Assembly: GCA_011050465.1 (NCBI GenBank)
Contig: DRFQ01000009.1
Location: 334 to 64,333, forward strand
Reading direction: 5' to 3'
DNA: 64,000 nt
Source: Candidatus Nealsonbacteria bacterium
GTDB taxonomy: Bacteria; Patescibacteriota; Minisyncoccia; Minisyncoccales; RBG-13-36-15
Position numbers and translations under genes: made by a program. Under the pieces are notes generated by a model that saw nothing but the letters and a program-made list of their open reading frames with translations, did no database searches and was not told the DNA's origin. Below are positions 4,256-54,527 of the stretch, piece by piece (positions within the stretch are counted from its first letter, which is position 1; every line of letters starts with the position of its first letter).

Positions 4256-4264
4256 AATCAGAGT

Positions 4265-4759: not shown

Positions 4760-4767
4760 GACTTCAT

Positions 4768-4965: not shown

Positions 4966-4971
4966 GAACGA

Positions 4972-5043
4972 CGCGCCGTGGAGAAACGGTTATCTCGCCT
5001 GTCTCATAAGCAGGAGCAGTAGGTTCAACTCCTACCGGCGCAA
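4972..5043 (+). tRNA. tRNA-Met (CAU), initiator-like
   Basis: A cloverleaf was folded by hand, with anticodon loop CTCATAA. C1xA72 mismatch and an A11:U24 pair are bacterial initiator hallmarks, but the three G:C pairs of the anticodon stem are absent. CCA is not encoded. Confidence 0.8.
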
Positions 5044-5095
5044 CAATATTGTAAAGCAAATTTGACCGATAACTATTTTGGTAGAATTGGAATTT

Positions 5096-5168
5096 GCCGG
5101 TGTAGCTCAGTGGTTAGAGCAGGGCCTTCATAAGGCCAAGGTCATAGGTTCAAATCCTGTCACCGGCA
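5096..5168 (+). tRNA. tRNA-Met (CAU), elongator type (Ile2/lysidine type not excluded)
   Basis: Acceptor GCCGGTG/CACCGGC, D arm GCTC-AGTGGTTA-GAGC, anticodon loop TTCATAA, T arm ATAGG-TTCAAAT-CCTGT. Confidence 0.85.
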
Positions 5169-5321
5169 TAACGCCGGGTTCGTCCCGTCATTCGACGAGG
5201 CGTCCAGTCGGATGGCTGGGCGAGTCCCACCCTCGGCATAAAATTCGAATAGACCCGTGGTGTAGCCCGTTCGGATACTACGGAGCAAGCACGTTTTTCT
5301 GTCAATTTCGTACCAAAATTT

Positions 5322-5397
5322 GGGCGCGTGGTGTAGCCTGGTTTAACGCGCTTCCCTGTCACGGAAGAGATCGCCGGTTCAAATCCGGTCGCGCCCG
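5322..5397 (+). tRNA. tRNA-Asp (GUC)
   Basis: Acceptor GGGCGCG/CGCGCCC, anticodon arm CTTCC-CTGTCAC-GGAAG, T arm GCCGG-TTCAAAT-CCGGT, discriminator G. Confidence 0.9.
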
Positions 5398-5434
5398 CAC
5401 TTCGACAAGCTCAGTGCAAGACAAAAATTCATCT

Positions 5435-5443
5435 TGATATAAT
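5435..5443 (+). promoter_or_regulatory. Extended -10 promoter (TGATATAAT) for the sigma factor gene
   Basis: A perfect TGnTATAAT lies about 45 nt upstream of ATG 5490. An SD-like GGGAGTGAGAG precedes the start. Confidence 0.4.
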
Positions 5444-5489
5444 AAAAAAAACGAACGGCAGTACAATACCACAAGAAAGGGAGTGAGAG

Positions 5490-6296
5490 ATGTCGGACAG
5501 CACCTTAACAAATAAGAATGATAGCACTTTGGTACAAGCAGCTGAAATTCCACAGAAACCTAATTTTAAAGAAGTGTATACTCAGTACTACAGGCGTATT
5601 CTACGCTATATACAGGCAAGAACTAATAGCCTTGAGATCGCCGAAGATCTGACAGGAAAAGTATTTCTTAAAGCCCTTGAGAGCTACAGAAGATTTAGAA
5701 TGAAAGAAGGCCCAGAATCGCCCAGATTTTGGCTTTTTCGCATAGCCCACAATATCGTTGTGAGTTGGCAAAGAAAAAACGTTATAAGGTTTATCAGGCT
5801 CGATGAAATTGATCTACATATTCCCGATAATCTCGTCGATATCATTGAGAAGAAAGTTAAACGCACTTGGCTCTTGCAGGCAATAAAGAATTTAATATCC
5901 GGGCAGCAATTAGTAATTGCTTTGATTATTTTCTTCGGTTTCAAACTAAAACAAATCGCTAAGATTTTAGACGTTACAGAGGGTTGTGTAAAAACAAGAA
6001 AGCATAAAGCCATCAAAGTTTTGAGGCTGGCAGTTTCAGCTGATAGACTCGACAATAACGAGAATAATAGAGGAACCCTTTCTATTATTGATGTAATTGA
6101 AGCTGCAAAGCATGTTTTGGACTCTGGGCTGCCGCAAACCTCAGCGCCATTACATCAAGTCTTTTCTCTTGAAGTGGCAAAGATCCTGGAAGAAAGAGGC
6201 TACCGATTTCCGGATATTCTTAAGGTTTTATCATCTTTACCGGAAGATTTTTTCAAAGAAATTATTAAAGAGAATCCATACACGCTGAAAATATAG
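5490..6296 (+). CDS. Sigma-70 family (ECF-like) RNA polymerase sigma factor with a C-terminal extension
   Basis: Region 2-like FWLFRIAHNIVVSWQRK. Region 4 HTH LKQIAKILDVTEGCVKTRKHKAIKVLR. An extra C-terminal tail of about 80 aa. Confidence 0.8.
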   Translation: MSDSTLTNKNDSTLVQAAEIPQKPNFKEVYTQYYRRILRYIQARTNSLEIAEDLTGKVFLKALESYRRFRMKEGPESPRFWLFRIAHNIVVSWQRKNVIRFIRLDEIDLHIPDNLVDIIEKKVKRTWLLQAIKNLISGQQLVIALIIFFGFKLKQIAKILDVTEGCVKTRKHKAIKVLRLAVSADRLDNNENNRGTLSIIDVIEAAKHVLDSGLPQTSAPLHQVFSLEVAKILEERGYRFPDILKVLSSLPEDFFKEIIKENPYTLKI

Positions 6297-6376
6297 AACG
6301 AGATTGTTCAATTTATTTTGTAACTAGCTGAGTTTCAGTTATTAAAATCGTATTCAATAAAAGTAACTGAAAGGTA

Positions 6377-6405
6377 GCTGCCGAGCATAACTTGGCGGCT
6401 TTTTA
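6377..6405 (+). terminator. Intrinsic terminator after the sigma factor gene
   Basis: gctgcc-N11-ggcggc stem followed by TTTTTATTTT. Confidence 0.55.
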
Positions 6406-6458
6406 TTTTATCCGTATCACTTTTTGTTTAGAGCAAATTCCATTACCCTTTCTAAAAT

Positions 6459-6486
6459 ACAAAAAGTGGCGGCAGCGGCCGCCACT
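6459..6486 (-). terminator. Intrinsic terminator of the Xer-like gene
   Basis: The minus strand reads agtggcgg-ccgctg-ccgccact followed by TTTTTG. Confidence 0.55.
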
Positions 6487-6506
6487 TTGACTTCAGTGGC
6501 TTAGTT

Positions 6507-7382
6507 TTAGATTTGAAGTCTTTCCCGGAAACGATCTACAGAGTGTTGGTGAGTATGACCAAGTAATTGCTGGAGTTTCTCAGAAGAAACCCCAAGGGCT
6601 AATTGTCGAGCAGCAAAGTTGTATCTTAAGGCCCGTGGAGTTACTTCATTTTTTAGGTTAGCTGAATGAGCGCATTCTCGGATTATCCACCAGACACCAT
6701 TACGGGTCAGTCTCTCGCCGCGTTGATTAAGAAAAAGGGCCTTTTCTTTGAGTGCTTTTTCGGATCGGCCACTAATCAGTTTTAGCCTTGCTTTCTGTAT
6801 ATATTCAGATAGAGCCAAAACTACCCGGAAAGGAAGAGAAATTTTTCTTATATTTCCCCGGTGGCAGATTTTGATTTCGGGATATTCTGCACCTAAATCA
6901 GCCATTTCTAAGTCTAGCGATACTAATTCCGAAGGCTGTATTCCAGTAGCCAGGAATAGTTCTATCATTGCCGAATCTCTAATTCCTTTTGGAGTAGCAC
7001 GTTTGGCTAAAATTTCCAGAAGTTTTTTTATTTTTTTATCGGTTAAAACCTCAAAAATTGTTTTTGGGCTTTCTCTATAAAAAGCCATTTCTTCCACAAG
7101 ATTCTCTTTTATCAGTTTTTTGGCTTTCAAATACCCAAGGAAAGACCTTAGAGCGGCAAGCCTTCGATTTATTGTTGCGCTAGCTATATTCTGTTCCTTC
7201 AGCCATTCGTTATAATCCCTAATGATTTTTGAGTCCATTGTCTTTACGGTTGGCTGTCCTGGATGATTGGCGCAGAATCTTAGGAACTCACTTAAGTCCC
7301 GTCGATAGCTCAAGAGTGTATTATTAGCTGCTGCTTTTTTTGTTTGCATAAAGACGAGAAATTCCTTGATCAGCGTTTCCAT
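6507..7382 (-). CDS. XerC/XerD-like tyrosine recombinase homologue with degenerate active site
   Basis: N-terminal core-binding pattern (NTLLSYRRDLSEFLRF) and C-terminal LRYNFA and LLGH boxes. The Arg-I context reads ATGIQPSEL (Q where R is expected). No Tyr follows LLGH (THQHSVDRFRERLQI-stop). Confidence 0.75.
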   Translation of the reverse strand: METLIKEFLVFMQTKKAAANNTLLSYRRDLSEFLRFCANHPGQPTVKTMDSKIIRDYNEWLKEQNIASATINRRLAALRSFLGYLKAKKLIKENLVEEMAFYRESPKTIFEVLTDKKIKKLLEILAKRATPKGIRDSAMIELFLATGIQPSELVSLDLEMADLGAEYPEIKICHRGNIRKISLPFRVVLALSEYIQKARLKLISGRSEKALKEKALFLNQRGERLTRNGVWWIIRECAHSANLKNEVTPRALRYNFAARQLALGVSSEKLQQLLGHTHQHSVDRFRERLQI

Positions 7383-37581: not shown

Positions 37582-38043
37582 ATGAATTTCGAAAGCATTA
37601 TTAAGGGAAGAATTGCCAGTATTATTACTAGCTTAATGTTTCAAGACGCTGATTATTTAGTCGTAAATTACGGACATGAAAGTATCCCTGATCGCCTTGT
37701 ACAATTAGGCGTCTCAAAAGACGGTAAGGCCGCGGAAGTATTACTCACTAGCCCATCTTTTATTGTCATGAATAAAAAGGATCGTTCCGTTAATTTGCTC
37801 CAAATCAGATACCAAGGTGAGGGCGCTAGTGGTAGAAATATTATTTGGAGATATGAAAAAATGCAGAGATATTGGCCTGGTAGTCATTTATTATTAGTTC
37901 GTCCCAGAAAGCCTTACTTTTTTATAATGACCGTAACAAAAAATGGGCCTAAGCCCATTCCATTAATAGATTCTAAAATTTTCAATGTAGATAAGGGAAT
38001 AGTTTTGAAATTTGGGCAATTCGTTAAGAAGTTTCTTTCATAA
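37582..38043 (+). CDS. Hypothetical protein (153 aa), first gene of the element
   Basis: An intact ORF with no confident motif. Confidence 0.4.
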   Translation: MNFESIIKGRIASIITSLMFQDADYLVVNYGHESIPDRLVQLGVSKDGKAAEVLLTSPSFIVMNKKDRSVNLLQIRYQGEGASGRNIIWRYEKMQRYWPGSHLLLVRPRKPYFFIMTVTKNGPKPIPLIDSKIFNVDKGIVLKFGQFVKKFLS

Positions 38044-38298: not shown

Positions 38299-39615
38299 CT
38301 ATTTTTCCAGCAGGATTTTTTTGTCTTTTAGAATTAGTTTGCTTTTCAGAAAGAAGAGGAATTCTCTTTTTTCAACCAGCGTTCCTTCTCTGAGAAGATA
38401 CTTTGCGTAATTTCGTATATCGATATCAACGTTATTATTTTCTTTTTTATGGCCCAGTACTCCGATCCTGAATTTATTGAATCTTGTGATTTCCTGTTCT
38501 ATTCTTGATTTTACCCCTAACTCATCTAAATCAATTCTATCCATCAATTCTATCAACTCGTTGATTAAATTTGGTTCATTGACAGCAGGATTTTTACAAT
38601 CAATATTTCTGGCTTTCGTGCAGAAATAATAGACGTGGCGGTTTACACCACCATCTTTTAATTTTTTGAACTTTTCATCAGCTGATATTCCCGAACCGCA
38701 ATAGCCGCATTTAATCAGTTTCGTGAAAGCGAATTCTTTGCTCTCGGTTTTTGGAATAAAGTTTTCATTAAGCGTCGTCTGAACCCTATCAAATAATTCC
38801 TTATTTATAATCGGCGTGTGCTTGCCAATATACCACTTGTTACTTCCCACTGGATATTCAAACTCTCCGTAATAGAAGTGATTTCGGAGAATGAGATAAA
38901 TGTTGGCAAGCACAAGCAGCTTGCCGTTTTTAGTTTTGAATTTTATCTCTCTCAGCCAACGATATACCTTACGTCCGCTCCATTGTTCGCTTGCCACTCT
39001 TTCAAACATCTGCTTTATAACCGGAGCTCTCTTTGGGTCAATCCTCGCCTGGCACTTTTTATCAGCGTGTTTTTCGTTGAGGTAGCCTGTAGGAGCGACT
39101 CCCGGCCTAAGTCCCATCTCGCATCTGGTTCGCAGCCCTCGCTTCACATTTACCGCTTTGTTGTCATTCTCGAGCTTAGCTTGAGATCCCAATATCATAA
39201 GCATGAACTTTTCGTTCGGGTTATTAGTGAATCTTTGCCCGAATGTCCTTATTTCCAATAGAAGCTTTTTATCCATCAAATCTACGATAGAACCTAAGTC
39301 TCCGGCATTTCTGCTCAGCCGGTCTGGAGCCCAAGTTAAAATACCATTGTATTTTCCTTCTTTTATTTCAGCCAGCATTTGATTAAAAATCTCTCTTTGG
39401 CCGACTTCCTTTGAAGAATGAGATTCGCGCTTGATATCTACAACTTTGAGGTTGTCTTTTTCTGCCAAAACCAACATCTCTTTTACCTGCGATTCTATAG
39501 AAAGAGTTTGTTTATCTTCTGCTTCAGTTGATTTTCTGGCATACAGGCAGTAACGTATATCAACCTTAACAGGGGATTGAAAATTATTAAGTCGTTCTTT
39601 TGTCGCTTGTTCCAT
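38299..39615 (-). CDS. Large serine recombinase
   Basis: N-terminal resolvase domain (CLYARKSTEAEDKQTLSIESQ), a recombinase domain, and a zinc-ribbon CGYCGSG...YYFCTK. Length 438 aa. Confidence 0.9.
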   Translation of the reverse strand: MEQATKERLNNFQSPVKVDIRYCLYARKSTEAEDKQTLSIESQVKEMLVLAEKDNLKVVDIKRESHSSKEVGQREIFNQMLAEIKEGKYNGILTWAPDRLSRNAGDLGSIVDLMDKKLLLEIRTFGQRFTNNPNEKFMLMILGSQAKLENDNKAVNVKRGLRTRCEMGLRPGVAPTGYLNEKHADKKCQARIDPKRAPVIKQMFERVASEQWSGRKVYRWLREIKFKTKNGKLLVLANIYLILRNHFYYGEFEYPVGSNKWYIGKHTPIINKELFDRVQTTLNENFIPKTESKEFAFTKLIKCGYCGSGISADEKFKKLKDGGVNRHVYYFCTKARNIDCKNPAVNEPNLINELIELMDRIDLDELGVKSRIEQEITRFNKFRIGVLGHKKENNNVDIDIRNYAKYLLREGTLVEKREFLFFLKSKLILKDKKILLEK

Positions 39616-39753
39616 ATCCTTGAATAGTCCTTAATTATTATAATTCGACCTTTCAAGGAGAGGATGCCGCAACGGCTCTGATGAGTCCAGGCCCCATCAG
39701 TTGACAACTTTTCAACCCAAAATTCTTCACTAATTTCATGGATAGACAAAAAA

Positions 39754-39768
39754 CTGCCAAAATGGCAG
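39754..39768. promoter_or_regulatory. Palindrome ctgccaaaatggcag (candidate operator O1) in the divergent control region
   Basis: 6-bp arms. It shares the CCAAA(A)TGG core with the palindrome at 39823-39840. Confidence 0.4.
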
Positions 39769-39816
39769 AATTAAGGTAGTTTTAAGAGAAATCAAACTTA
39801 TTCACAGGTTAATCTC

Positions 39817-39846
39817 TTGACACCCGACCAAATGGTCGGGTATTAT
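39817..39846 (+). promoter_or_regulatory. Promoter of the lexA-like/hsdM operon with an embedded palindromic operator (cccgaccaaatggtcggg, 39823-39840)
   Basis: TTGACA (39817-39822), an 18-nt spacer made up of the 18-bp palindrome, then TATTAT (39841-39846). ATG 39853 lies 6 nt after the -10 box. Confidence 0.5.
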
Positions 39847-39852
39847 AATATA

Positions 39853-40500
39853 ATGACTATAAAAAAAGAAATTATTACCAGAAGACAAAAAGAGTTATTA
39901 TCTATTATTTACGAATATATTAAGGACACTGGATATCCGCCAACCTTTGAAGAAATGAGAAAAAGATTAAATGTGTCCTCAAACCAATCGATTATCGATC
40001 TTTTGGTAAAATTAGAAAAACAGGGAGTTATTAAACGAAATGAGTCTTCGGCTCGAGGTTTAGCAATGTTGCCTTTAGGATATAGGATGCTTGGCCAACC
40101 GTCACTTGCTGCTTTTTTAGGCATTACAAGTGCAGGAGCACCCATTGAGGCTATAGAAATATCGGGAGAATGGCAATCAGTTTCTTCGGATATTAAAAAA
40201 CTTAAGGACGAAGTTTTTCTTTTGAAAATTTCCGGTGATTCAATGATTAATGCCGGTATTGAAGACGGCGATGTTGTTTTAGTAAAGGATCAAAAAGAAT
40301 TTTCCTCTCGCGATATTGTCTTAGCTCAAGTAGGGGACGACTCGACTATCAAGCGTTTTATTTCAGAAGATACACCACCATATGTTTATCTTAAGCCGGA
40401 AAATCCAAAATATAATATTATTCTTTTTACCGAAGAAAGTCGACTTATAGGAAAGGTTATTTCTGTTTTTAAAAATGGCTATTGGAAGCCGGTTAAATAA
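39853..40500 (+). CDS. LexA-like S24-peptidase repressor
   Basis: N-terminal winged-helix region (LLSIIYEYIKDTGYPPTFEEM..SNQSIIDLLVKLEKQGVI), an Ala-Gly cleavage-site context (SAGAP), Ser in GDSM and Lys in TIKRF. Confidence 0.85.
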   Translation: MTIKKEIITRRQKELLSIIYEYIKDTGYPPTFEEMRKRLNVSSNQSIIDLLVKLEKQGVIKRNESSARGLAMLPLGYRMLGQPSLAAFLGITSAGAPIEAIEISGEWQSVSSDIKKLKDEVFLLKISGDSMINAGIEDGDVVLVKDQKEFSSRDIVLAQVGDDSTIKRFISEDTPPYVYLKPENPKYNIILFTEESRLIGKVISVFKNGYWKPVK

Positions 40501-40509
40501 TTAAAATCT

Positions 40510-42465
40510 ATGCCAACTAAAAAACTCAATAAAACCAAAGAAATAATTGATAAAATTTTTCGCGACCCAGAAATAACCTATGGTTTAAAAGAATTCGAAG
40601 AAATTGACTTCGAAAAAGTTTTAGAAATTACCGAGGAAAGTCGAGATAAATTTTACATTAAAGACATTAAATCAAAAAAACTAAAACTTGTTTTTGATGA
40701 ATCAAAAAAGCAGGGTAAACCCGAAGAAATTATTCGACAACTTTGGCTCTACAAACTTAATACTCAGTATAAATATCCTTTTGATCGTATAGATACAGAA
40801 AAAAGTATTCACTTTGGTCGAGAGATTCACGCCAAAGCTGCTGACATCGTTGTTTATAAAAAAGATAAAATCACGCCGTTTATTATCCTAGAGATTAAAA
40901 GTCCAACCGAAAAGAAAGGAATTGAACAACTTAAAAGCTATCTTTCTGCCGAAGGTTCAGAAATAGGGGTTTGGTCAAATGGTAAAGAGCGAGTAATATT
41001 ATATAGACCATATCCAAAAGAGTTTCAAGATTCTTTAAGTGATATACCTCGAGCCGATCAAACCATCGACGATTTATTTGAAATCAAAAAAACTTGGTCC
41101 GAATTAAATCCAAAATTTGATTTTGTTAGAATTATCAAACGTATAGAAGAATTAGCTCTCGCTGGTTCTGGAGCAAATGTTTTTGAAGAAATCTTTAAAA
41201 TAATTTATGCCAAACTCTATGATGAAAAACTGGCACGTGAGCGGCGCGAGAACCAAGAAGTGCTTTTTAGGAAATATCGTGATCCCGAGAAAACATTTGA
41301 GGTGATCAACGACCAGCTTTTTAAAAATGCAATTAAAGAATGGCCAGATACTTTTGAAGAGTCAGATCGTATTAAGCTTTCTTCAGCAAGGCTTAATATC
41401 TGTGTGCCATTTTTGGAAAATGTTCGTCTTTTTGAATTAGGGAAAGGCGAACTGGAAATTATTGATAGTGCGTTTGAATATTTAATCACGGAAGTTTCAA
41501 AAGGTAAAAAAGGACAGTATTTTACACCTCGGCATGTCATCAAAATGTGTGTAAAGATGACGAATCCTAAAGCTGACGAATATATTATTGATCCCGCCTG
41601 TGGCTCCGGCGGTTTTCTTTTACATACAATGTATTATGTTTGGGAGAAATTAACCACAGAGGCAGCAAAAAATGATTATGCAGCAAAGTACCTCTTTGGG
41701 TTGGATTTTGACGAGAATATGCGTCGTATTTCCCAGGCTTTAATGCTTATTGCAGGTGATGGTAGACATCATATTTTTAAACGTGATTCACTTGATGCTC
41801 GGGACTGGCAAGGAGTAGAAAGCGAGGAGGCACGAGTAGCGTTGAAGCCGCTTTTATTAAAATTGGAAAATCCATCTGAAGCAAAAGAAAATCAACTTAC
41901 TTATAGGTATTTGAATTTTGACATTTTATTGACCAATCCGCCTTTTGCCGGAGAAAATCCCGAGTCAGGATTGTTGCGCCAATATGAACTTGCTAAAAAA
42001 GATGGCAAATTAAAGAATAATGTTGAGAGGCACATTCTTTTTATTGAGCGTTCTCTTGACGTCATTCGTCCTGGCGGCCGAATGGCAATCGTCTTGCCGC
42101 AAGGCGTCTTAAATAATACTAATATGGAGTTTGTCCGAGAATATGTTCTTAGTAAAGCAAGGATTTTAGCCGTAGTCGGACTCCATGTTAACACATTTAA
42201 ACCTCATGCTGGAACCAAAACTTCTATTTTATTTTTACAAAAATGGAATGAAAAAGAAAAACCACCTAAAAATTATCAAATTTTTATGGCGGTTTCAAAA
42301 AAGCCAGGCAAAGATAATTCCGGAGATTATGTGTATAAAAAAGATGATAAAGGAAATTATATTCACGATGCCAAAGGCCGTAAAGTTTTAGACCACGACC
42401 TCGGTGAGATCGCCGAAGCATTTGTTGATTTTGCCAAAAAACAAAAATTTAGTTTTTGGGAATAG
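40510..42465 (+). CDS. hsdM: Type I-like N6-adenine DNA methyltransferase (HsdM) fused to an N-terminal HsdR_N/PD-(D/E)xK-like domain
   Basis: Motif I DPACGSGGFL and motif IV NPPFAG. The N-terminal region AADIVVYKKDKITPFIILEIKSP...QLKSYL...WSNG resembles the HSDR_N nuclease-like fold (D...ExK). Confidence 0.85.
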   Translation: MPTKKLNKTKEIIDKIFRDPEITYGLKEFEEIDFEKVLEITEESRDKFYIKDIKSKKLKLVFDESKKQGKPEEIIRQLWLYKLNTQYKYPFDRIDTEKSIHFGREIHAKAADIVVYKKDKITPFIILEIKSPTEKKGIEQLKSYLSAEGSEIGVWSNGKERVILYRPYPKEFQDSLSDIPRADQTIDDLFEIKKTWSELNPKFDFVRIIKRIEELALAGSGANVFEEIFKIIYAKLYDEKLARERRENQEVLFRKYRDPEKTFEVINDQLFKNAIKEWPDTFEESDRIKLSSARLNICVPFLENVRLFELGKGELEIIDSAFEYLITEVSKGKKGQYFTPRHVIKMCVKMTNPKADEYIIDPACGSGGFLLHTMYYVWEKLTTEAAKNDYAAKYLFGLDFDENMRRISQALMLIAGDGRHHIFKRDSLDARDWQGVESEEARVALKPLLLKLENPSEAKENQLTYRYLNFDILLTNPPFAGENPESGLLRQYELAKKDGKLKNNVERHILFIERSLDVIRPGGRMAIVLPQGVLNNTNMEFVREYVLSKARILAVVGLHVNTFKPHAGTKTSILFLQKWNEKEKPPKNYQIFMAVSKKPGKDNSGDYVYKKDDKGNYIHDAKGRKVLDHDLGEIAEAFVDFAKKQKFSFWE

Positions 42466-42470
42466 AAATT

Positions 42471-44369
42471 ATGAAATTATTTCTTAAAGCAATTGAATTC
42501 GAAGATTACAGAAATATAAAAAATGGCTCAAGACTAATTTTTGAGCCTATTACTACTTTAGTTGGAGCAAATGAGAGCGGGAAGAGTAATATAATTAGAG
42601 CCATACAATTGTTATCCGAGGATTTTAATGAAAATGACACGAAAATGGGCAGTATTAGGGCATCAAGAAACGAAATGCCATTACTTAGGTATTTTTTTGA
42701 ACTTAAAAGTAAAGACCTGTTCGGATATTTTAAACAAAGTATTAAAAATTTCAGGGATAAAAATCTGATTTGTTTAATCGTAAGTGGTGAAACAAATGAA
42801 TTAATGTTATCAGATCAACGTTTTTCATTAAGGGAAATTGAATATAGAAATCAATGGAAGAATACTAGTGGTCAGCCCATGAAATTTAAGGCTCGCAAAG
42901 GAAAAGAGATAGAATTACAACAAAACGAAAAAATTTTTGGGGATAATGATAATAAATTTGCTATAGCGAAACTAGCTAGAGAGAATAAAATAACGAAACT
43001 TACGACTGAAGAAATAGACTCAGATGTTATAGATAAAATTTTTAAAGATTTTCTTCCAGAAATAGAATACTGGGAATATGACCAAGATAAACATTATCTT
43101 CCAGACCATGTATTCTGGGATAAATTTTTAACAGCGCCAGATAACTTTTTACCAGTTAAAAATTTATTTTTAATTGCTTGCTCCGAAGGAAATCTAACAG
43201 ATTTTAATACTGCCTTATCTAGTTTTAAAGGTAAAGATCATGAGATTCAAAAATATCTTGATGATGTTAGTAAGTCGCTTAACAAAATTATCAAAAAAAC
43301 ATGGAAGCAAAGCAATATAGAACTACAACTTTTTTATCAAACAGATAAATTGAGATTTGATATATACGAAGGAGGTCGCAGAACTCCTCCAAGCGTAAGA
43401 AGCGATGGTTTAAAATGGTTTCTTTCCTTTTTGCTTGATTTTAGATCAAGAGGTGAGTTGCAAAATAAGATTATTTTATTTGATCAACCGGGTGAGAAAT
43501 TACACCCCGGTGGTCAAAAAGAGTTACGAGAGCGTTTTACAGAAATTGCTTTAAAAAATCAAGTGATTTTTGCAACCCAATCTCCATTTTTAATTGATCG
43601 TAATTCTTGGTCAAAAGTAAAATTTTTACAAAGAAAAAATGGAGACCCTGAAATTAAGCAACCTACTAAATATGATGTAAAGAACGATGAATTACTTCGG
43701 CATTCACTTGGGTATTCACTGGCAGATGTGGGACAAGCCAATGACTTTAATATTGTCGTAGAGGGTTATACCGACCAGTTTTTATTATTAGATATAGGAA
43801 GAAGACTTAATGAAATAGCGTCTTATTTAGAAAAGAAACCGATTATTAATTTAAATAAGATAGCTATCTTTGATTCGCGTGGATTTACCACAATTAAAAA
43901 AAGGGTTGATGAATTACTACAAGCTAATTTGCATGCCATCGGCCTTTATGATGGCGATGATGTTAGTAAAAAACGGTTCTCTCAAGATCGTAAATCTAAG
44001 AGATTTAGAAATCTTCTATTTTCCTTAGATGAAATAGTTGATCAGAATAATTATAAAACGATTGAGGATTTAGTCCCTGAAAGATTATGGGAGAAATCAT
44101 GCAAGGAATATTTTAAAAAGAATCGGTCTAAATTAACTAAGAAAAACTTTTGTCATCCTCGTTGGGGAAAAATTAAGGAATGGTACAAGAATAACTATAA
44201 TACCGAAATTACCCGAAAAGAGAAAGAGAGTCTATGGGAAGTTATTTTTGATAATTGGGATCAATATTTTGATAGCGTAAAAGATATTTCAAAAATTTCT
44301 GAGATTAATATAACAAAACAGGCATTAGAAAGTTTAGCTAAAAAAGTTGCTCGTGGAAAGAATAAATAA
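42471..44369 (+). CDS. OLD-family protein: ABC-type ATPase fused to a C-terminal TOPRIM nuclease domain
   Basis: Walker A GANESGKS, SDGLKWFLSF (signature-like), ILFDQPGEKLHP (Walker B region), and TOPRIM VVEGYTDQ ... GLYDGDD. The start is taken at ATG 42471 (MKLFLK). Confidence 0.75.
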   Translation: MKLFLKAIEFEDYRNIKNGSRLIFEPITTLVGANESGKSNIIRAIQLLSEDFNENDTKMGSIRASRNEMPLLRYFFELKSKDLFGYFKQSIKNFRDKNLICLIVSGETNELMLSDQRFSLREIEYRNQWKNTSGQPMKFKARKGKEIELQQNEKIFGDNDNKFAIAKLARENKITKLTTEEIDSDVIDKIFKDFLPEIEYWEYDQDKHYLPDHVFWDKFLTAPDNFLPVKNLFLIACSEGNLTDFNTALSSFKGKDHEIQKYLDDVSKSLNKIIKKTWKQSNIELQLFYQTDKLRFDIYEGGRRTPPSVRSDGLKWFLSFLLDFRSRGELQNKIILFDQPGEKLHPGGQKELRERFTEIALKNQVIFATQSPFLIDRNSWSKVKFLQRKNGDPEIKQPTKYDVKNDELLRHSLGYSLADVGQANDFNIVVEGYTDQFLLLDIGRRLNEIASYLEKKPIINLNKIAIFDSRGFTTIKKRVDELLQANLHAIGLYDGDDVSKKRFSQDRKSKRFRNLLFSLDEIVDQNNYKTIEDLVPERLWEKSCKEYFKKNRSKLTKKNFCHPRWGKIKEWYKNNYNTEITRKEKESLWEVIFDNWDQYFDSVKDISKISEINITKQALESLAKKVARGKNK

Positions 44370-44375
44370 CTACTT

Positions 44376-45737
44376 ATGGTTACTCATCTCATAATCCAAA
44401 AATCACAACTAGAAGGCGGTTTGCGTCTTGATGCGGAATATTATCAACCGGAATATTTAGAGTTAAAAAATAGATTGTGTAAAACCGAATCATATAAATT
44501 CTGGAAAGATATTAAAGGAAACTTTATTACGGGACCCTTTGGCTCAGAATTTAATGTTGAAAACTATGTTTTAAACGGGAAATATCGGTATGTTCGTGGA
44601 AAAGACGTTAAAGAATTTTTCCTTTCTGACGATGATAACGTATATATACCCCAAAAAGACTTTGAAAGACTTAAAAAATATTCATTAAAAGAAAATGATA
44701 TTTTAATTTCAGTTGTTGGAACGCTTGGAAATGCTGCTATTATTGATAATTCTGTTCCTCCAGCAATTTTTAGCTGTAAGAGTACAGTTTTTCGTAGCGA
44801 ATCGATAAATCCTTACTATTTTATTAGTTATCTTAATTCGCTTTATGGTCGAAAATTATTAGGCCGTAATGTACGCGGCGCAGTTCAGACAGGACTTAAT
44901 ATTGATGATTTGAGATTATTGCCAGTATTTATTCCACCAAAACAACAACAGGAATTGATTGGTTCGTTGGTCTCGAAGGCAAAGGAGGAATATGAAAATA
45001 CTAAATTATTTTATTCTCAAGCTGAAGATTTACTTTTAGAAGAATTGGGTTTAAAAGATTTTGAAGTCGGGGATGATTTGTCTTATGTTGTTAATCTTTC
45101 AGATTTAAAATTAGTTAACCGTATTGATGCCGAGTACTTTCAGCCGAAACACGAGAAATTAATATCAAAAATTAAAAACCAAAATATAAAAAAACTTGCT
45201 GATTTAGTTTCAATAAAAAAGGGGATTGAGATAGGAAGTGAGAAATATCAAAAAGAGGGAAAGTTATTTGTTCGAGTGAGCAATCTTTCAAAACAGGGGA
45301 TTATTGATAAGGATCAGAAATATTTAAGCGAAGAATTATATCAGAAACTAAAAAAAGATTTTGAGCCAAAAGCAGGAGAAATTTTACTAACTAAAGATGC
45401 AACTCCGGGCATGGCTTATTTATTAAAAGAATCAATTGAGGGAATAATTGCCGGCGGAATTTTAAGATTAAAACCCGAAACAAAAATCGAACCAGAATAT
45501 TTAGCTTTAGTGATAAATTCTATTGTTGGTCAATCACAAGTAGAACGAGATACCGGTGGTTCAGTAATTATCCACTGGCGACCAGAACAAATTAAAAATT
45601 GTTCAATTCCAATTTTACCTAAATCTACCCAGCAAAAAATTGCTGATTTGGTTCGCCAATCCCACGAAGCTCGCAAAAAAGCAAAAGAATCATTAGAACA
45701 AGCCAAACAAAAAGTCGAAGAATTAATTGAGAAATAA
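44376..45737 (+). CDS. hsdS: Type I restriction-modification specificity subunit (two target-recognition domains)
   Basis: Duplicated TRD openings RLDAEYYQPEY and RIDAEYFQPKHEKL. Conserved helical spacers (QQQELIGSLV, QQKIADLVRQ). Confidence 0.85.
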   Translation: MVTHLIIQKSQLEGGLRLDAEYYQPEYLELKNRLCKTESYKFWKDIKGNFITGPFGSEFNVENYVLNGKYRYVRGKDVKEFFLSDDDNVYIPQKDFERLKKYSLKENDILISVVGTLGNAAIIDNSVPPAIFSCKSTVFRSESINPYYFISYLNSLYGRKLLGRNVRGAVQTGLNIDDLRLLPVFIPPKQQQELIGSLVSKAKEEYENTKLFYSQAEDLLLEELGLKDFEVGDDLSYVVNLSDLKLVNRIDAEYFQPKHEKLISKIKNQNIKKLADLVSIKKGIEIGSEKYQKEGKLFVRVSNLSKQGIIDKDQKYLSEELYQKLKKDFEPKAGEILLTKDATPGMAYLLKESIEGIIAGGILRLKPETKIEPEYLALVINSIVGQSQVERDTGGSVIIHWRPEQIKNCSIPILPKSTQQKIADLVRQSHEARKKAKESLEQAKQKVEELIEK

Positions 45738-45748
45738 TCAAAAATATT

Positions 45749-46018
45749 ATGACAAAAATTAAAGTTAAAAAAATAACAGATGGTGACACCTTTCAGGGCA
45801 CAAGGGGTGGATTTTACCGCTTAGCTAATGTTGATGCTCCCGAAAAAAGAGAGCGGGGGTATCAAAAGGCCAAAGAAACCTTAAAAGAACTTATTGAAGG
45901 CGAAAAGCTTATTGTTAAAGTTGAGGGCACATCTTATGGTAGAAAAGTTGCAACCGTCAGAATACCAGGCGAAAAAACGAGTATTAATGAAAAAATGAGG
46001 CGTAGGGGTTATAAATAG
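45749..46018 (+). CDS. Small staphylococcal-nuclease-like (SNase/thermonuclease fold) protein
   Basis: ITDGDTF, YRLANVDAPE and SYGRKVATV match the SNase Ca-binding and catalytic residues. At 89 aa it is shorter than typical SNases. Confidence 0.65.
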   Translation: MTKIKVKKITDGDTFQGTRGGFYRLANVDAPEKRERGYQKAKETLKELIEGEKLIVKVEGTSYGRKVATVRIPGEKTSINEKMRRRGYK

Positions 46019-46193
46019 AATTTCCTCAGGTCGTTTTTAAAATGGTACGTCATACTATCCCAAATGGAACACCCCCTTTCTGTGTCCCATTTGTCCCATT
46101 TTAGCTTAAAAAGCCCCGACCGAGACGCCTAAATGGAACACGGCCAAAATCGCCCAAAACACCCTTAAAACTGGGGTTCAGAACTGAGGTACA

Positions 46194-46225
46194 CAGCCAT
46201 CCTATGCTAAGTCAAGTGACCGAGA
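46194..46225 (+). repeat. Right direct repeat (att-like): cagccatcctatgctaagtcaagtgaccgaga
   Basis: 30/32 match to 37456-37487. Confidence 0.85.
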
Positions 46226-46258
46226 CTTGTTCGATTTGAGTCCTGAGCCAGCAATATA

Positions 46259-47224
46259 ATGATTGATCAACTATCCAATTTAATAGTTAATCTGGACCTT
46301 GTCTTTCTGGCTATTTCGCCAATGGTTTTTGTGTTTAGCGTTACCTTGTTGGGCGACGCTATTGGACATGCGCAACAAGAGGAAAAAGCTGCCAGAGACA
46401 ATGATAAAATCACCATACAAAAAGATATAACAGAGGTGGAAACAGCCTTAGAAGAAACTAAAAGGAAGGGATATATCACCGACAAACTTGATGAAAATTT
46501 AACACGATTACAAAGTAGACGGCAGCAAACTGAAAAGAAAATTAGGGATATAAAAATTAAATATAGCGCTATTGATCTTAGAAATACTGTTGTATATCCT
46601 TGTTTTTCTTTTCTACTCTCTATTTTAATTGACCCGCTTAGAAATCTATCGGGAAATTTTGATATATCTTATTATTTAATTTTCTTTTCACAAACACTTT
46701 TATTTTTATACGGTTTTATAAAAATTTATAAAAGTCTTCAACTCGTACAACAGACAACCACCAAGAAAAAATCTGGAGAATACTTTAGGCATATAAAAAC
46801 AGCTTTTAAAGATGCGCTGGAAGAATATTATCAAAGCACAAAAGAAGAGGTTTCTGTAGAGTTTAAAGATATAGCTTTTCCGTTAAATATAGCGCCGTCA
46901 ACAGAATTAAATATTTTTCTAAGGACGGAGCTAATAAAAGGCTCTCTTCTAAGAAACGCATCTGTATGGTTTTATGTCGCTGATGGCTTAGAGTTAATTG
47001 ATCCTCCCGAAACTAGTAGTTGGAGGCAATCGGCAGACTATAACCCACCAAACATCCGAACAGTTAAAGTTGATCTTGGTGATTTAAGTATAGGTCAATA
47101 TATTCCAAGGACTCTAAAACTTAAAATGCCAACAATTCCAGGAAAATACTTACTTAGATATGTAGTCAAGGGGGATGGTTATTCTGGACCATCAAAAGAT
47201 TTAACATTATTGGTGACTGGATAA
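46259..47224 (+). CDS. Hypothetical membrane protein with coiled-coil and a C-terminal beta-rich domain
   Basis: One N-terminal TM helix, a charged helical segment, two to three TM helices and a C-terminal region of about 120 aa. No motif recognised. Confidence 0.45.
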   Translation: MIDQLSNLIVNLDLVFLAISPMVFVFSVTLLGDAIGHAQQEEKAARDNDKITIQKDITEVETALEETKRKGYITDKLDENLTRLQSRRQQTEKKIRDIKIKYSAIDLRNTVVYPCFSFLLSILIDPLRNLSGNFDISYYLIFFSQTLLFLYGFIKIYKSLQLVQQTTTKKKSGEYFRHIKTAFKDALEEYYQSTKEEVSVEFKDIAFPLNIAPSTELNIFLRTELIKGSLLRNASVWFYVADGLELIDPPETSSWRQSADYNPPNIRTVKVDLGDLSIGQYIPRTLKLKMPTIPGKYLLRYVVKGDGYSGPSKDLTLLVTG

Positions 47225-47352
47225 ATTCGTCCCTGACCGAGACGCGTCAATGAGACACGCCTCAAACCCCCTAATTTCCCCTTAAAACACAGGTTCTAGA
47301 CTAAGGATGTCAGCAACAGTCAGCGCAGTATCGAGGCCGACCGAGAGGCCTC

Positions 47353-47404
47353 AAAATCGCCAACCTGTCCGCCTCTGGAGGAGAAGGCGGTTTTTTGATA
47401 GAAT
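47353..47404 (+). repeat. 52-nt junction module (hairpin terminator plus TGATAGAAT extended -10)
   Basis: aaaatcgccaacctgtccgcctctggaggagaaggcggttttttgatagaat. A 50/52 identical copy lies at 61900-61951. Shorter variants lie at 48873-48903 and 62572-62600. Confidence 0.85.
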
Positions 47405-47410
47405 AGAAAA

Positions 47411-48001
47411 ATGAAACGAGTAAAAATTAACCCACCATATATTCCCTTAACTCAACAGAAATTATGTTGCGTGCCTTGTGCTATTCAGTGGATTTTGTTA
47501 AGAAGGGGTTTGAAATTAGTTGACCAAGAAACAATAGGAAATGCATTAGGTTTAATGGTGCCTAAAAAACACAAGAATTTATTTATTAGTAAGGTAAAAG
47601 TAGGAAAGAAAACTCCAAAAAGAGGCTGGGGAACTAATGAAACAGATGGTTCAAAAATGAACAGGTTTTTCAAAAAACACAGAATTCCGTTACGGGCCAA
47701 GAAGGTTTTTTATTCAGAAATTAAAGACGCGGCAAAGTTGATTATAGAAAGCCTGAAAAAGGGCAATGATTTAATGCCGGTTACTTATATGTCAATAATA
47801 GAACCTAAAGAGAAATATGGACACGCATTATTGATTAGTGAAATTATTTTAAGCAAGAAGCCGAAAGTTATTGTTGGTGACCCTCGTTTTCTTTCAAAAA
47901 AATTCTGGGAAGTTGACTTAGATAGGCTCATTAAAGGAATGAGCAAGAAGTTTGACGGAGAAGAAAGGGGAATATATATTTTTACCAAGCATAAAATATG
48001 A
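47411..48001 (+). CDS. Hypothetical protein, possible papain-like cysteine peptidase fold
   Basis: The Q..CC...C...W near the N-terminus and GHALLI later suggest a Gln/Cys...His arrangement. The evidence is weak. Confidence 0.35.
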   Translation: MKRVKINPPYIPLTQQKLCCVPCAIQWILLRRGLKLVDQETIGNALGLMVPKKHKNLFISKVKVGKKTPKRGWGTNETDGSKMNRFFKKHRIPLRAKKVFYSEIKDAAKLIIESLKKGNDLMPVTYMSIIEPKEKYGHALLISEIILSKKPKVIVGDPRFLSKKFWEVDLDRLIKGMSKKFDGEERGIYIFTKHKI

Positions 48002-51359: not shown

Positions 51360-54300
51360 ATGGCTAAAATTGTTAAAAATAAATTAGGGAATTTTTTGGC
51401 GATTTGCCTTATCCTTTTGATGGTGGCGGGTTGGATTTTTTCTGGCTGGCCACAAGTGTGGCACGATCCTCCTTTTCCTCCAAAAGTTGAAGACGTACAT
51501 GCTACAACAAGAACAATTGAGCAGCAGATAAATATTATTGACCAGGAGTATGAGTCGGAGGTGCTGGGTTCTTATAAGCCAACCGATAATAGTCTTGGCC
51601 TGATCCGTTGGGATAGTGCCAAATATCCTGGCGCTGTGGTTTATTTTGAAGCAGTAGCAATGGTGTTTGCCGAGACCGATACTGTCAAGGTAGCTCTTTT
51701 TAGCTCTGACGGAACACAAGTTGCAAATAGTGAAGTAACCCATTCTAGCGCTGGTAATTATACAAGAGTAAGATCTAGCGCCCTTACTTTGGGTACGCTC
51801 CCCAATTTGCAGAGCAATACCGATTATTCTGTAAGGGTAAAAGCCGTGAATGATTGGGTTTCGCTCAAAGCCGCCCGCCTCATAATTGTCCAGTCCGACG
51901 GCACAAAAATTACAGATACCGTTACTCAAATTGAAGCTGGGGATAATCAGTCTACGACGGCAACCTCAGGAAGTCCGAGCACCCTTGCAAACCCAAATTA
52001 TTATATGTTTGACAAGGATATGTTTTCAGGAACATACGGGACAGACATTAACGCTTATTTTGAGGCGTCTCTTAAAGCTTCAGCAATACTCTCCGCTGCC
52101 GCTTATTATTTCAACGCCTACGACAGCGGTACCGCCTGGACCAACGCCCCAGCGCAGATGGTTGACGGTTCAACGAGCAACTTCGCGGTAACCGGCGGCT
52201 CCGATGAAAATCAACGCAACACCGCAAGCACGTGCGACGCCACATGCGGTGCAAAAAGCGAGACAATCACAAAAGTGGAATTAAGAGTTTATGCTTGCCA
52301 AGATAACGCTGATAACGGATGGATTACCTTAACCCCGTATTTTTCCGGTTCATCGCAGGGAGACGGGCACACTTGGTCGGCGGTTCCCGACGGGAATAGC
52401 TGTGAAACCGGGGTTGCCGCCTGGAGCCCTTATTTTGACATTACAAGCGATACAAATGCTCCGGGCACTTGGGGATGGAGCGATGTAGAAAACCTTGATG
52501 TTAATGTGTTCGGTGACAGACAGGGAGGAGCCGATGTTATCCACGCGGCGCAAGTCGATATTCAAGTAACGTATGAACCGGGTACAACATCTACCGCATA
52601 CGCAGAGCTTTATAACCGCACCAATAGCGCAGTAGTTGGTAATAGTACTATTTCTGTGAATAGCACTAGTTGGACGCGAGTTCGTGGCGCAAGTGCTTTG
52701 AACTCGTCAGACAACTGGGATATAACCAATGATGATGAATATGAAGTGCGCATTTATTCTTCAAGCGGTTCTGACGCCGCCTATATTGCTAATGCTAAAA
52801 TTGTTATTGAACAGAGTATTTCAGGGGGTATAGATAAACTGGAGACGGTGCATCAGTATAATAATACGTTGGTAAGTCTCGGAGGTGATGTGGTAACTGT
52901 TTATGCTCAATTAACTATTTCAGGAGGTGCTGCCATCTCTGGTAGTAAGCAAAGTACTGGTAGTGGCAGTTATACGCGGTTGAGAAGCAGTGGTTTAACA
53001 TTATCTACTAATGATTTTGATGTTGAGTTAAGCGTGAACGATTCAGCATATACGGAACAAGGATTTATGAACAAATATGATTCTACTAATTGGGTGGGTG
53101 GAACTTTTGTATATTTATTTGAAACAATACTTAAAAATGTTGTTACAGTTAGAGAGGACTCCTCAACTTCCTGGCTTATCATTCAGATATCTGGGCTTGC
53201 TTCTATTATCGCAACTACTACCATTGGTGATGGTACTGACCCCAGTGATTCAACGGTTGCACCGGAAAGCGGGATTACTGATCTTGATGCAGTCACTTTC
53301 GTTACCAACACCGGCACTGATTCCATTACTGCCGTAACCGTTACTCTTGGGGCAGGTGATTCAGATAATTTGAGCGAGGTGCGGATTACAAACGATAATG
53401 GATTAACGACATATTTTTCCGCAATTTCCAGTCCCTCAAGTGACACACTCAATTTTAGCGGTGGCACACCAATACCGGTTACAGCTTCATCAACGCAGTT
53501 TAAGGTCAGAATCACTCCAGAAACTCACGCCAACATGCCAGCTCCCCAGGGAGCAGAATATGCTATAACCGGAACCATTACCGCTTTTACCAGTACCAAC
53601 ACCCAGGCAGGAACAGATACCGGCAGTGCCATGATAACCATTGACAACTTATCGCCCAATAACGCCACATCCACAAGTGGTAGTGTTACTTCAGATACTG
53701 AAATAACAATCAACTGGACGACTTCCAACAGTACCGATTACAATCGCTCAATCGTACTGCGGTGGCAAGCCTCCCTTCCTGGGGCCGATGTGCCAGCAGA
53801 AGGTACTAATTATAGTCTTGATGATACCATTGGCGGAGCAAAGGTGGCTTGTGTAGAGAATACCGGTACTTCTTCTACGGCCTACAGCGGGGTTGATGGT
53901 TCTGGTGCAGATGAGTGTAGCACTACCGCTTTGTCTGTCGGTACGCAATATTCATATAAACATTTTGAGAAGGATGATAACGGAAACTGGAATACAGGAT
54001 TTACGAACGCCAGCTCTCCTTTAACGACAACCGGCGGCGCAACTTTAACCTTTAGTATTTCCGACAACGATATATTCTTTGGTGATTTGAGCGCTTCGGC
54101 GTCTAAATGGGCAGATAATACCGCAGACGGAAGCACTACAGCAGTGGTTGCCCATACGCTCGCCGCCTCAACAAACGTCACCAACGGATACACCATAACC
54201 GTAAACGGAACCACGCTTACTTCGGGTGGTGATACCATTATTGCCATGGCTTCTGAAGCTATTCTTACCACCGGGCAAGAAGAGTTTGGTCTGCGCATTA

Positions 54301-54527
54301 CGGCTTCTGGCGGAAACGGTACGGTTGATGCTGATTATGACAATAGTCCAGCTGACAGCTATGCCCTCATTACTGGTAACTTTCCGGATGTGATTGCAAC
54401 AGACGCAGACGGCGATGACGTGAGCACCACATATTCGCTCTACTATGCAGCAAACATTACCGCAAACACCGAGGCCCACACCGACTACACTTCCAGCCTA
54501 ACCTACGTTGCAACCGGAAACTTTTAG
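51360..54527 (+). CDS. Large (1055 aa) Thr/Ser/Asn/Gly-rich cell-surface protein with N-terminal membrane anchor, internal repeats, FN3-like module and a C-terminal domain shared with the next gene
   Basis: TM helix LAICLILLMVAGWIF. A motif repeated three times (YTRVRSSALTL / WTRVRGASAL / YTRLRSSGLTL). ITINWTT...YSYKHF is FN3-like. The last 190 aa or so are paralogous to 54678-55817. It is GC-richer than the core genes. Confidence 0.7.
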   Translation: MAKIVKNKLGNFLAICLILLMVAGWIFSGWPQVWHDPPFPPKVEDVHATTRTIEQQINIIDQEYESEVLGSYKPTDNSLGLIRWDSAKYPGAVVYFEAVAMVFAETDTVKVALFSSDGTQVANSEVTHSSAGNYTRVRSSALTLGTLPNLQSNTDYSVRVKAVNDWVSLKAARLIIVQSDGTKITDTVTQIEAGDNQSTTATSGSPSTLANPNYYMFDKDMFSGTYGTDINAYFEASLKASAILSAAAYYFNAYDSGTAWTNAPAQMVDGSTSNFAVTGGSDENQRNTASTCDATCGAKSETITKVELRVYACQDNADNGWITLTPYFSGSSQGDGHTWSAVPDGNSCETGVAAWSPYFDITSDTNAPGTWGWSDVENLDVNVFGDRQGGADVIHAAQVDIQVTYEPGTTSTAYAELYNRTNSAVVGNSTISVNSTSWTRVRGASALNSSDNWDITNDDEYEVRIYSSSGSDAAYIANAKIVIEQSISGGIDKLETVHQYNNTLVSLGGDVVTVYAQLTISGGAAISGSKQSTGSGSYTRLRSSGLTLSTNDFDVELSVNDSAYTEQGFMNKYDSTNWVGGTFVYLFETILKNVVTVREDSSTSWLIIQISGLASIIATTTIGDGTDPSDSTVAPESGITDLDAVTFVTNTGTDSITAVTVTLGAGDSDNLSEVRITNDNGLTTYFSAISSPSSDTLNFSGGTPIPVTASSTQFKVRITPETHANMPAPQGAEYAITGTITAFTSTNTQAGTDTGSAMITIDNLSPNNATSTSGSVTSDTEITINWTTSNSTDYNRSIVLRWQASLPGADVPAEGTNYSLDDTIGGAKVACVENTGTSSTAYSGVDGSGADECSTTALSVGTQYSYKHFEKDDNGNWNTGFTNASSPLTTTGGATLTFSISDNDIFFGDLSASASKWADNTADGSTTAVVAHTLAASTNVTNGYTITVNGTTLTSGGDTIIAMASEAILTTGQEEFGLRITASGGNGTVDADYDNSPADSYALITGNFPDVIATDADGDDVSTTYSLYYAANITANTEAHTDYTSSLTYVATGNF

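Follow-up and report, generated by a model that had tools for sequence, protein, structure and literature searches.

A probable Type IIB-like restriction-modification subunit encoded next to lexA in a Patescibacteria contig

The window analyzed here is a 64,000-nucleotide (nt) stretch of “Candidatus Nealsonbacteria bacterium” DNA (contig DRFQ01000009.1, positions 334 to 64,333). An open reading frame (ORF) at positions 40510-42465 of this window is annotated as “HsdM” or N-6 DNA methylase, and its product (HDZ54470.1, KKO02866.1) has the database name “SAM-dependent methyltransferase”. Does this gene encode only a methylase, or does its N terminus carry a nuclease as well? Labels such as “N-6 DNA methylase” and “Type I M” hide a probable nuclease, and loci that bear them look like orphan methylases without restriction. 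The fusion protein, for which the working name RM is used below, probably serves as the RM subunit in a restriction-modification enzyme of a Type IIB-like kind (BcgI-type, “RM + S”). The “RM + S” fusion layout is already known, and RM is an uncharacterized new member of that family.

Domain organization of RM

The RM gene and its parts are the following.

40510-42465, + strand: RM subunit, 651 amino acids (aa), consisting of a nuclease domain, a helical connector, a gamma-class N6-adenine methyltransferase and a C-terminal helix
40720-41049, + strand: HSDR_N_2 / PD-(D/E)xK nuclease domain, aa 71-180, identified by Pfam, AlphaFold2 model, Foldseek, hhalign and conservation
40798-40800, 40843-40845, 40891-40893 and 40897-40899, + strand: candidate catalytic residues E97, D112, E128 and K130 of the nuclease domain
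40927-40941, + strand: QxxxY motif of the nuclease domain, Q140-Y144
41458-42306, + strand: N6_Mtase domain, aa 317-599 (Pfam PF02384, E = 6e-37)
41590-41616, + strand: S-adenosylmethionine (SAM)-binding motif I of the N6_Mtase domain, DPACGSGGF, aa 361-369
41935-41946, + strand: catalytic motif IV of the N6_Mtase domain, NPPF, aa 476-479

The N-terminal part of RM matches the full length of the Pfam profile HSDR_N_2 (PF13588; positions 1-110 of 110, E = 1.1e-19, 71 bits against a gathering threshold of 25). This match is far beyond chance and bears out the HsdR_N / PD-(D/E)xK domain that the first-pass annotation, made from the sequence letters, had placed at the N terminus of HsdM. The peptide quoted there in its favor, HAKAADIVVYKKDKITPFIILEIKSPTEKKGIEQLKSYL...IGVWSNGKERVILY, corresponds to aa 107-165 (nt 40828-41004) and falls within the interval 40780-41010 that had been named for the domain.

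RM starts with a small N-terminal subdomain (aa 1-70), which is followed by the nuclease core (aa 71-180), a linker, the helical connector (aa ~205-310), and the methyltransferase, in which the residues of motifs I and IV are invariant or at least 90% conserved among 59 homologues. The protein ends ~50 aa beyond the methyltransferase domain with a single C-terminal helix. Homologues that lack the nuclease domain begin to align at RM residue ~204-208. Thus, the N-terminal extension is real, as claimed initially, but its length ahead of the methyltransferase core comes to ~200 aa rather than the ~230 aa first given.

Fold and active site of the nuclease domain

The conservation of the nuclease domain was assessed in an alignment of 66 sequences, comprising RM and 65 relatives with 43-88% identity. 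The pattern originally picked out by eye (D...E-x-K, Q..Y, and NG) maps to D112, E128-I-K130, Q140-xxx-Y144, and N157-G158. E128 and K130 do not vary, and conservation is at least 90% at D112, Q140, Y144, N157, and G158. A fourth acidic residue beyond these motifs, E97, is also invariant. The spacing of D...ExK...QxxxY in RM resembles that in HsdR of EcoR124I.

The AlphaFold2 (AF2) model of the N-terminal region has the fold of a PD-(D/E)xK nuclease and not a nonnuclease fold. Its mean predicted local distance difference test score (pLDDT) is 80.5, with values above 90 across most of aa 31-130 except the loop at aa 101-110. The secondary structure elements follow the alpha-beta-beta-beta-alpha-beta order of PD-(D/E)xK nucleases: D112 is located on core strand 2, strand 3 ends with E128-x-K130, and QxxxY is on the helix that comes next. 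Foldseek comparison of this model with the PDB returns mainly proteins of the restriction endonuclease fold. The top matches are the REase-like protein 3ijm (E = 8e-4) and the BsaXI RM subunit (8w0p_A; E = 4e-3, 25% identity over 160 columns). Further matches include Cas4, the HsdR fragment 3h1t, and the Type IIG enzymes BpuSI and DrdV, and HsdR of EcoR124I (2w00, 4beb) matches more weakly. The kinship with type I HsdR and Type IIG enzymes that had been suggested for this domain is thereby supported, and Type IIB enzymes carry it too.

The best PDB sequence match to the whole of RM is again the BsaXI RM subunit (8w0p, E = 1.9e-30), which aligns in three collinear segments that represent the nuclease, the connector, and the methyltransferase. 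This HMMER alignment pairs E97, D112, E128, and K130 of RM with E73, D90, E105, and K107 of BsaXI. Comparison of the N-terminal alignment with BsaXI residues 18-112 by hhalign gives the same pairing of the four residues (probability 95.4%, E = 1.9e-8), and the numbering of the BsaXI fragment is consistent with that of the mutated residues listed in PMC11997821. Alanine mutants of these four BsaXI residues have lost DNA cleavage, and all four are described as absolutely conserved throughout the Type IIB class (PMC11997821). With the full-length RM model as a query, Foldseek places three BsaXI RM chains first (E = 3e-20, ~674 columns), ahead of Type I HsdM structures (~1e-11, ~420-510 columns).

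Of the two roles initially considered for this domain, DNA cleavage is the better supported by sequence comparison, because the four residues that mutagenesis has shown to be catalytic in BsaXI are all present in RM and conserved. The alternative role of a sensor of DNA ends or modified bases found no support, the catalytic tetrad being strongly conserved.

Specificity gene and search for HsdR

The window encodes a specificity subunit downstream of RM on the same strand.

44376-45737, + strand: HsdS-type specificity subunit (S), 453 aa, with two target-recognition domains (Methylase_S in 2 stretches, E = 2.7e-20; Specificity_I, E = 3e-49)

Type IIB enzymes such as BcgI and BsaXI are known to be built in this way, as a nuclease-HsdM fusion with a distinct HsdS (PMC11997821, PMC6158711), a point that the first-pass annotation had missed. 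Its description of the operon as one lacking HsdR holds for the entire 64-kb window, where no HsdR was found and where the large ORFs code for PheT, GyrB, GatB, and others. The genomic context of RM was further compared in a survey of 96 loci (15 genomic, 80 metagenomic, and 1 found via a homologue). No HsdR is encoded beside RM-S in the ~95 loci other than the window; the large neighbors there include Mfd, UvrA, an AddA-like helicase, a cyclase-STAND protein, a primase, and others. An unrelated ResIII helicase is encoded 4 kb downstream of RM in one locus, L062, which is the sole such case among the related loci. An HsdR subunit with a superfamily 2 (SF2) translocase, which marks the classical Type I (HsdRMS) systems, is found neither in the window nor beside the related loci.

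Distribution and conservation of the RM family

The RM family is very widespread, with 7,942 proteins at E <= 1e-10 in one search and 10,340 cluster representatives at E <= 0.001 in another. Its members come in three forms: proteins of ~650 aa, as in the window; proteins of ~1,100-1,200 aa with a C-terminal HsdS; and proteins of ~420 aa without the nuclease domain. The single-chain form, which occurs among known Type IIB enzymes too, is exemplified by P0248, P0251, L050, L079, and a 1,179-aa protein of the Picosynechococcus PCC 7002 plasmid pAQ6. A search with the N-terminal 221 aa alone retrieved, with few exceptions, partial sequences of this family on short contigs; these were useful as an alignment only.

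Among the surveyed loci, E97, D112, E128, K130, Q140, and Y144 are all kept in each of the 85 RM genes with a recovered N-terminal domain, down to 32% overall identity. The tetrad is also kept in 68 of the 88 domain-bearing distant representatives, taken from clusters at 50% identity. The HsdS gene follows RM in most loci with available downstream sequence, usually less than 50 nt away; in L050 and L079 the two genes are fused. A conjugative plasmid of Klebsiella carries RM and S as a two-gene module on its own.

RM is unusually conserved in Patescibacteria. In metagenome-assembled genomes labeled Nealsonbacteria, Roizmanbacteria, Doudnabacteria, and Saccharibacteria (L007-L020), it is 75-88% identical to the protein of the window, whereas LexA, encoded next to it, is 59-75% and S is 34-70% identical. 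This high identity across lineages of the Candidate Phyla Radiation (CPR) suggests that RM is under strong constraint or, alternatively, that the cassette has spread horizontally.

Proposed function

Domain identities, conservation of the catalytic residues, and gene order with its conservation are established directly; the activities, stoichiometry, and cut positions described below are predicted by analogy with characterized enzymes. Type IIB enzymes are characterized by SAM-dependent cleavage of both strands at fixed distances on either side of a bipartite site, which releases a short fragment. In the system of the window, two RM chains would bind one HsdS subunit, whose two target-recognition domains would recognize such a bipartite site. 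The gamma-class methyltransferase domains would use SAM to methylate one adenine per half-site and thereby label the DNA of the host as self. Where the DNA is unmodified, the N-terminal PD-(D/E)xK domains (E97, D112, E128-x-K130, and Q140xxxY144) would cut it in the presence of Mg2+ and SAM. Being tethered by the helical connector, they are expected to cut close to the recognition site, and no ATP-driven translocation is expected because there is no HsdR motor.

The lexA-linked operon and its promoter

RM belongs to a tightly packed series of genes on the + strand, in the order lexA, RM, a gene for an OLD-like ATPase, HsdS, and a short SNase-like ORF. The promoter region and the first gene contain the following features.

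39798-39806, + strand: DnaA-box-like 9-mer TTATTCACA, with one mismatch to TTATCCACA, just upstream of the lexA -35 hexamer
39817-39846, + strand: operon promoter (TTGACA, 18 nt, TATTAT), the best sigma-70-like match (11/12) in 39500-47500
39825-39840: putative LexA operator, palindrome CGACCAAATGGTCGGG, between the -35 and -10 hexamers, occurring once in the window
39853-40500, + strand: lexA, 215 aa from ATG, with a winged-helix DNA-binding domain and an S24 autopeptidase domain

The identity of LexA is clear from its match to the equivalog model TIGR00498 (147.5 bits against a cutoff of 110.95) and to LexA_DNA_bind and Peptidase_S24. The sequence contains the Ala-Gly cleavage site and the motifs GDSM and KRF with the Ser and Lys residues. 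The TTG at 39817, where the mechanically called lexA ORF starts, is the -35 hexamer. Only 9 nt separate the lexA stop codon from the RM start, with neither a promoter nor a terminator between them.

In 25 loci, the window included, lexA is located directly upstream of RM, mostly with a gap of 0-20 nt, and RM is 45-100% identical to that of the window. The exceptions in spacing are L017, with 77 nt, and L010, with an intercalated 127-aa ORF. Distant relatives without lexA include the Elusimicrobiota locus L021 and the plasmid loci. In L021 (6678-7918), a gene for an AbiEi-like antitoxin and an ORF of unknown function precede RM, which is a defense island context.

The promoter is strongly conserved, and the operator palindrome is found at the same place in it in all 25 lexA-linked loci (besides the window, L001, L007-L020, L025-L027, L029, L030, L032, L039, L055, and L094), with the consensus ACTGACTAAATAGTCAGT. 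The DnaA box TTATCCACA is present in exact form in 9 of the 25 lexA promoters and with at most one mismatch in 13; from the background, 0.004 exact matches would be expected per 150 nt. In the related loci, it occupies the same position, ~55 nt ahead of the lexA start. In L012, the region of the lexA promoter is flanked by a divergent gene (3296-7246, - strand) for an intein-bearing UvrD/AddA-like helicase-nuclease.

While the promoter and operator sequences are read directly, the regulation is predicted from them. RM and lexA would share one transcript, which starts at the promoter with the palindromic operator of LexA type. The operon is probably autoregulated by LexA and, therefore, probably inducible by DNA damage. 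A further, tentative suggestion is that these loci represent a large clade of Patescibacteria in which a self-cleaving LexA heads a Type IIB-like RM operon with a cargo slot. DNA damage would then turn on restriction, modification, and the cargo (in the window, the OLD-family-like nuclease), a form of SOS-wired innate immunity that might perhaps be tied to replication. Full-text literature searches, whose coverage did not extend to a study of the SOS regulon of Patescibacteria, returned no report of lexA being linked to a restriction-modification operon in these bacteria. To our knowledge, no restriction-modification system has previously been placed in an SOS-wired immunity locus of this kind.

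Cargo slot between RM and S

In the window, the interval between RM and S (42466-44375) is occupied by a single gene.

42471-44369, + strand: OLD-family-like ABC-type ATPase with the Walker A motif GANESGKSN and a C-terminal Toprim-like part (VVEGYTD...DGDD); matches Pfam AAA_21 and AAA_15

This gene product matches the PADLOC model Old (E = 1.4e-21), as well as AriA and GajA, and the OLD nuclease in the PDB (6p74, E = 1.9e-5). OLD-family nucleases are known as stand-alone defense genes. The GC content is 0.32 across this gene and S versus ~0.37 in the flanks. Within the gene, a terminator-like hairpin at 43099-43120 overlaps an operator-like sequence on the minus strand, AGAATACATGGTCTGG (43101-43116, 16.9 bits), which agrees with the lexA operator of L014 at 15 of 16 positions; since about one match of this quality is expected in the window, this predicted site is judged compatible with chance.

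In the lexA-linked clade, the RM-S interval measures 0-1.9 kb and its content is hypervariable. It contains genes for OLD-like or AAA_15 ATPases, DUF3800, NYN-like, PD-(D/E)xK-like, and membrane proteins, as well as many genes without a recognized family. Besides the window, the variable slot is seen in L001, L007-L020, L025, L027, L030, L033, L039, L045, L051, L053, L056, and L094. An AAA_15/21 ATPase occupies the slot in only two of the ~96 loci, the window and L025. The cargo of 12 other lexA-linked loci and L021 is mutually unrelated, with only two pairs showing weak or moderate similarity, and in many surveyed loci RM directly adjoins S with no cargo at all. On this distribution, the OLD-like gene is rejected as an integral subunit of the system. 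The OLD-like ATPase-nuclease gene appears instead to be independent cargo in a hypervariable slot, and the RM-S interval as a whole looks like a hotspot for defense cargo.

Evidence against the assignment and alternative explanations

Several results weigh against RM being the subunit of a Type IIB-like restriction enzyme. The activities of RM and its close relatives are predicted only. Engineered fusions of the HsdR nuclease with HsdM methylated DNA and did not restrict it (PMC6158711), so that architecture alone is no guarantee of cleavage, and the restriction exerted by a natural fusion, HsdMSc of Zymomonas mobilis, is weak (PMC8432527). About 10% of the distant representatives are clearly degenerate at the catalytic residues; noncatalytic versions do exist. 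The search for HsdR covered 64 kb of the genome, and HsdR could be encoded elsewhere. On the structural side, the full-length AlphaFold model is of low confidence (pLDDT of 67, predicted template modeling score [pTM] of 0.47) because the usable alignment is shallow (76-92% identity), and it serves for coarse Foldseek ranking only. In plain phmmer, the N-terminal domain matches BsaXI weakly (i-E = 0.86), and its profile finds nothing at E <= 1 among the PDB sequences; the link to BsaXI for this domain rests on the full-length search, Foldseek, and hhalign.

The behavior of the engineered fusions would suit a solitary methyltransferase that serves in epigenetic marking or in protection from other nucleases, with the nuclease-like domain being inactive or acting as a DNA-binding or sensing module. 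The same can be said of the degenerate motifs in distant members (DDVS, DDIS, and EDDS), of those homologues that lack the domain entirely, and of the position after lexA amid housekeeping genes, which is unusual for a defense system. Nevertheless, such a role is improbable. The complete set E-D-ExK-QxxxY in all 85 domain-bearing genes points to selection for catalysis, because the catalytic residues stay invariant down to ~32% overall identity. In addition, S diversifies (24-70% identity) and RM is conserved, as expected in an arms-race system, and the Zymomonas homologue does restrict DNA.

A comparably small and slightly lower probability attaches to a MADS-like, ATPase-dependent system, in which RM and S would provide methylation-based discrimination of self from nonself and the OLD-like ATPase-Toprim protein would be the effector nuclease. 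MADS is in fact the best-scoring named family in NCBIfam, with MAD2 matching RM (E = 3e-89), MAD3 the ATPase (E = 1e-6), and MAD5 the S subunit (E = 3e-49) in the same gene order; the PADLOC models mad2, mad3, and mad5 match too, the genes are tightly packed in one operon, and the slot of L025 also contains an AAA_15 ATPase. However, all scores are far below the curated cutoffs (300 versus 720 bits for MAD2, 28 versus 420 for MAD3, and 168 versus 400 for MAD5), and no model for MAD1, MAD4, MAD6, MAD7, or MAD8 matched LexA, the SNase-like ORF, the flanking ORFs, or the cargo genes of the relatives. Membership in MADS is ruled out by these scores and the absence of the remaining mad genes. The presence of the ATPase in 2 of ~96 loci, with unrelated cargo or direct RM-S adjacency elsewhere, also speaks against it, as does the established role of OLD-family nucleases as stand-alone defense genes. 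The least likely arrangement, with a very low probability, is a classical Type I system with its HsdR motor encoded elsewhere and the N-terminal domain of RM as an accessory or a remnant. The view of the genome is limited to 64 kb, a single HsdR serves several HsdMS pairs in some bacteria (PMC8432527), the REBASE-derived PADLOC model “Type I methyltransferase” (PDLC03034) matches RM over its full length (E = 2.5e-162), and one related locus has the ResIII helicase 4 kb downstream. Against this, HsdR is found beside RM-S neither in the window nor in the ~95 other loci, the Klebsiella two-gene plasmid module included, and a conserved active nuclease on the M subunit would duplicate that of HsdR. 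Moreover, in Zymomonas, deletion of the only HsdR left restriction by the fusion system unaffected.

Other neighboring genes

Three more genes were delineated next to the operon, as listed below.

37582-38043, + strand: 153-aa ORF without a recognized family, upstream of the lexA operon, with a weak homologue after S in L014
38299-39615, - strand: large serine recombinase (Resolvase, Recombinase, and Zn_ribbon_recom; CcrB/XisF-like, below the cutoffs)
45749-46018, + strand: SNase-like ORF, 89 aa, truncated looking (PF00565, E = 3e-8, profile positions 3-73 of 107), with DGDT and VDAPE motifs

The SNase-like ORF has no counterpart after S in the other surveyed loci. The serine recombinase gene is divergent to the lexA operon, is not found beside other loci, and represents context rather than a part of the system. 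Together with the 153-aa ORF, it may mark the boundary of a mobile element. Elsewhere in the window, a 1,055-aa ORF (51360-54527) has no match to any Pfam family at E <= 1e-4.

Implications

Recognition of RM as a probable nuclease-methyltransferase fusion draws attention to a very widespread, uncharacterized family and would add to the small, biotechnologically useful Type IIB class, of which REBASE lists only 28 characterized members (PMC11997821). The fusion itself is ordinary, and greater interest attaches to the conserved operon in which lexA, RM, cargo, and S are combined. If this operon is under SOS control, organisms with tiny genomes and few other known defenses would tie restriction and a swappable cargo to DNA damage, which would bear on phage resistance and the handling of foreign DNA in CPR bacteria.

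Comparison with known systems

MADS shares with the window the gene order of methyltransferase, ATPase, and S, and the MAD2 profile spans the nuclease domain too (RM aa 67-622). It differs in that the window genes score far below the cutoffs, the other five mad genes are absent, and the ATPase is not conserved among the relatives.

The classical Type I systems EcoKI and EcoR124I have a nuclease domain of the same HsdR N-terminal family, and both the RM methyltransferase and S are Type I-like. In contrast to these systems, the one in the window has no SF2 translocase, so that neither ATP-dependent reeling nor distant cleavage is expected.

A closer parallel is HsdMSc of Zymomonas mobilis ZM4 (ZMO1934 / ZMO1933), in which HsdR_N is fused to the N terminus of HsdM, with an adjacent HsdS and no HsdR (PMC8432527). 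HsdMSc methylates a bipartite site and lowers plasmid uptake, and deletion of the only HsdR of the cell, which is plasmid borne, has no effect (PMC8432527). This layout is the same as that of RM + S, to which it is likened by the published description, but no lexA linkage has been reported for HsdMSc.

BsaXI is the only RM + S enzyme with solved structures (8w0p, 8w2p, and 8w2q). RM is ~21-25% identical to its RM subunit but is shorter (651 versus 916 aa), and the alignment stops at BsaXI residue ~627, before the residues of the paddle (811-823), which is needed for cleavage by BsaXI (PMC11997821). The paddle is a hallmark of BsaXI, as is a second element called the knob. RM has no room for this C-terminal paddle and does not belong to the BsaXI subfamily.

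The general agreement is with the Type IIB RM + S enzymes (BcgI, BveI, and others), whose domain arrangement is a nuclease-HsdM fusion plus S (Bower et al. 2018, PMC6158711; PMC11997821). In common with them, the system in the window has one chain with an N-terminal PD-(D/E)xK domain, a helical connector, and a gamma-class N6-adenine methyltransferase; a separate HsdS-like subunit with two target-recognition domains; no motor subunit; and the catalytic residues of BsaXI. It differs from known Type IIB systems in the full Type I size of S (453 aa) and in its location in a lexA operon, with cargo inserted between RM and S, a setting for which those systems offer no described counterpart. In its size and its single C-terminal helix, RM is similar to the BcgI-type members (PMC11997821). 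Thus, with 651 aa, a single C-terminal helix, and no room for the BsaXI paddle, RM fits the BcgI-type “RM + S” group rather than the BsaXI subfamily.

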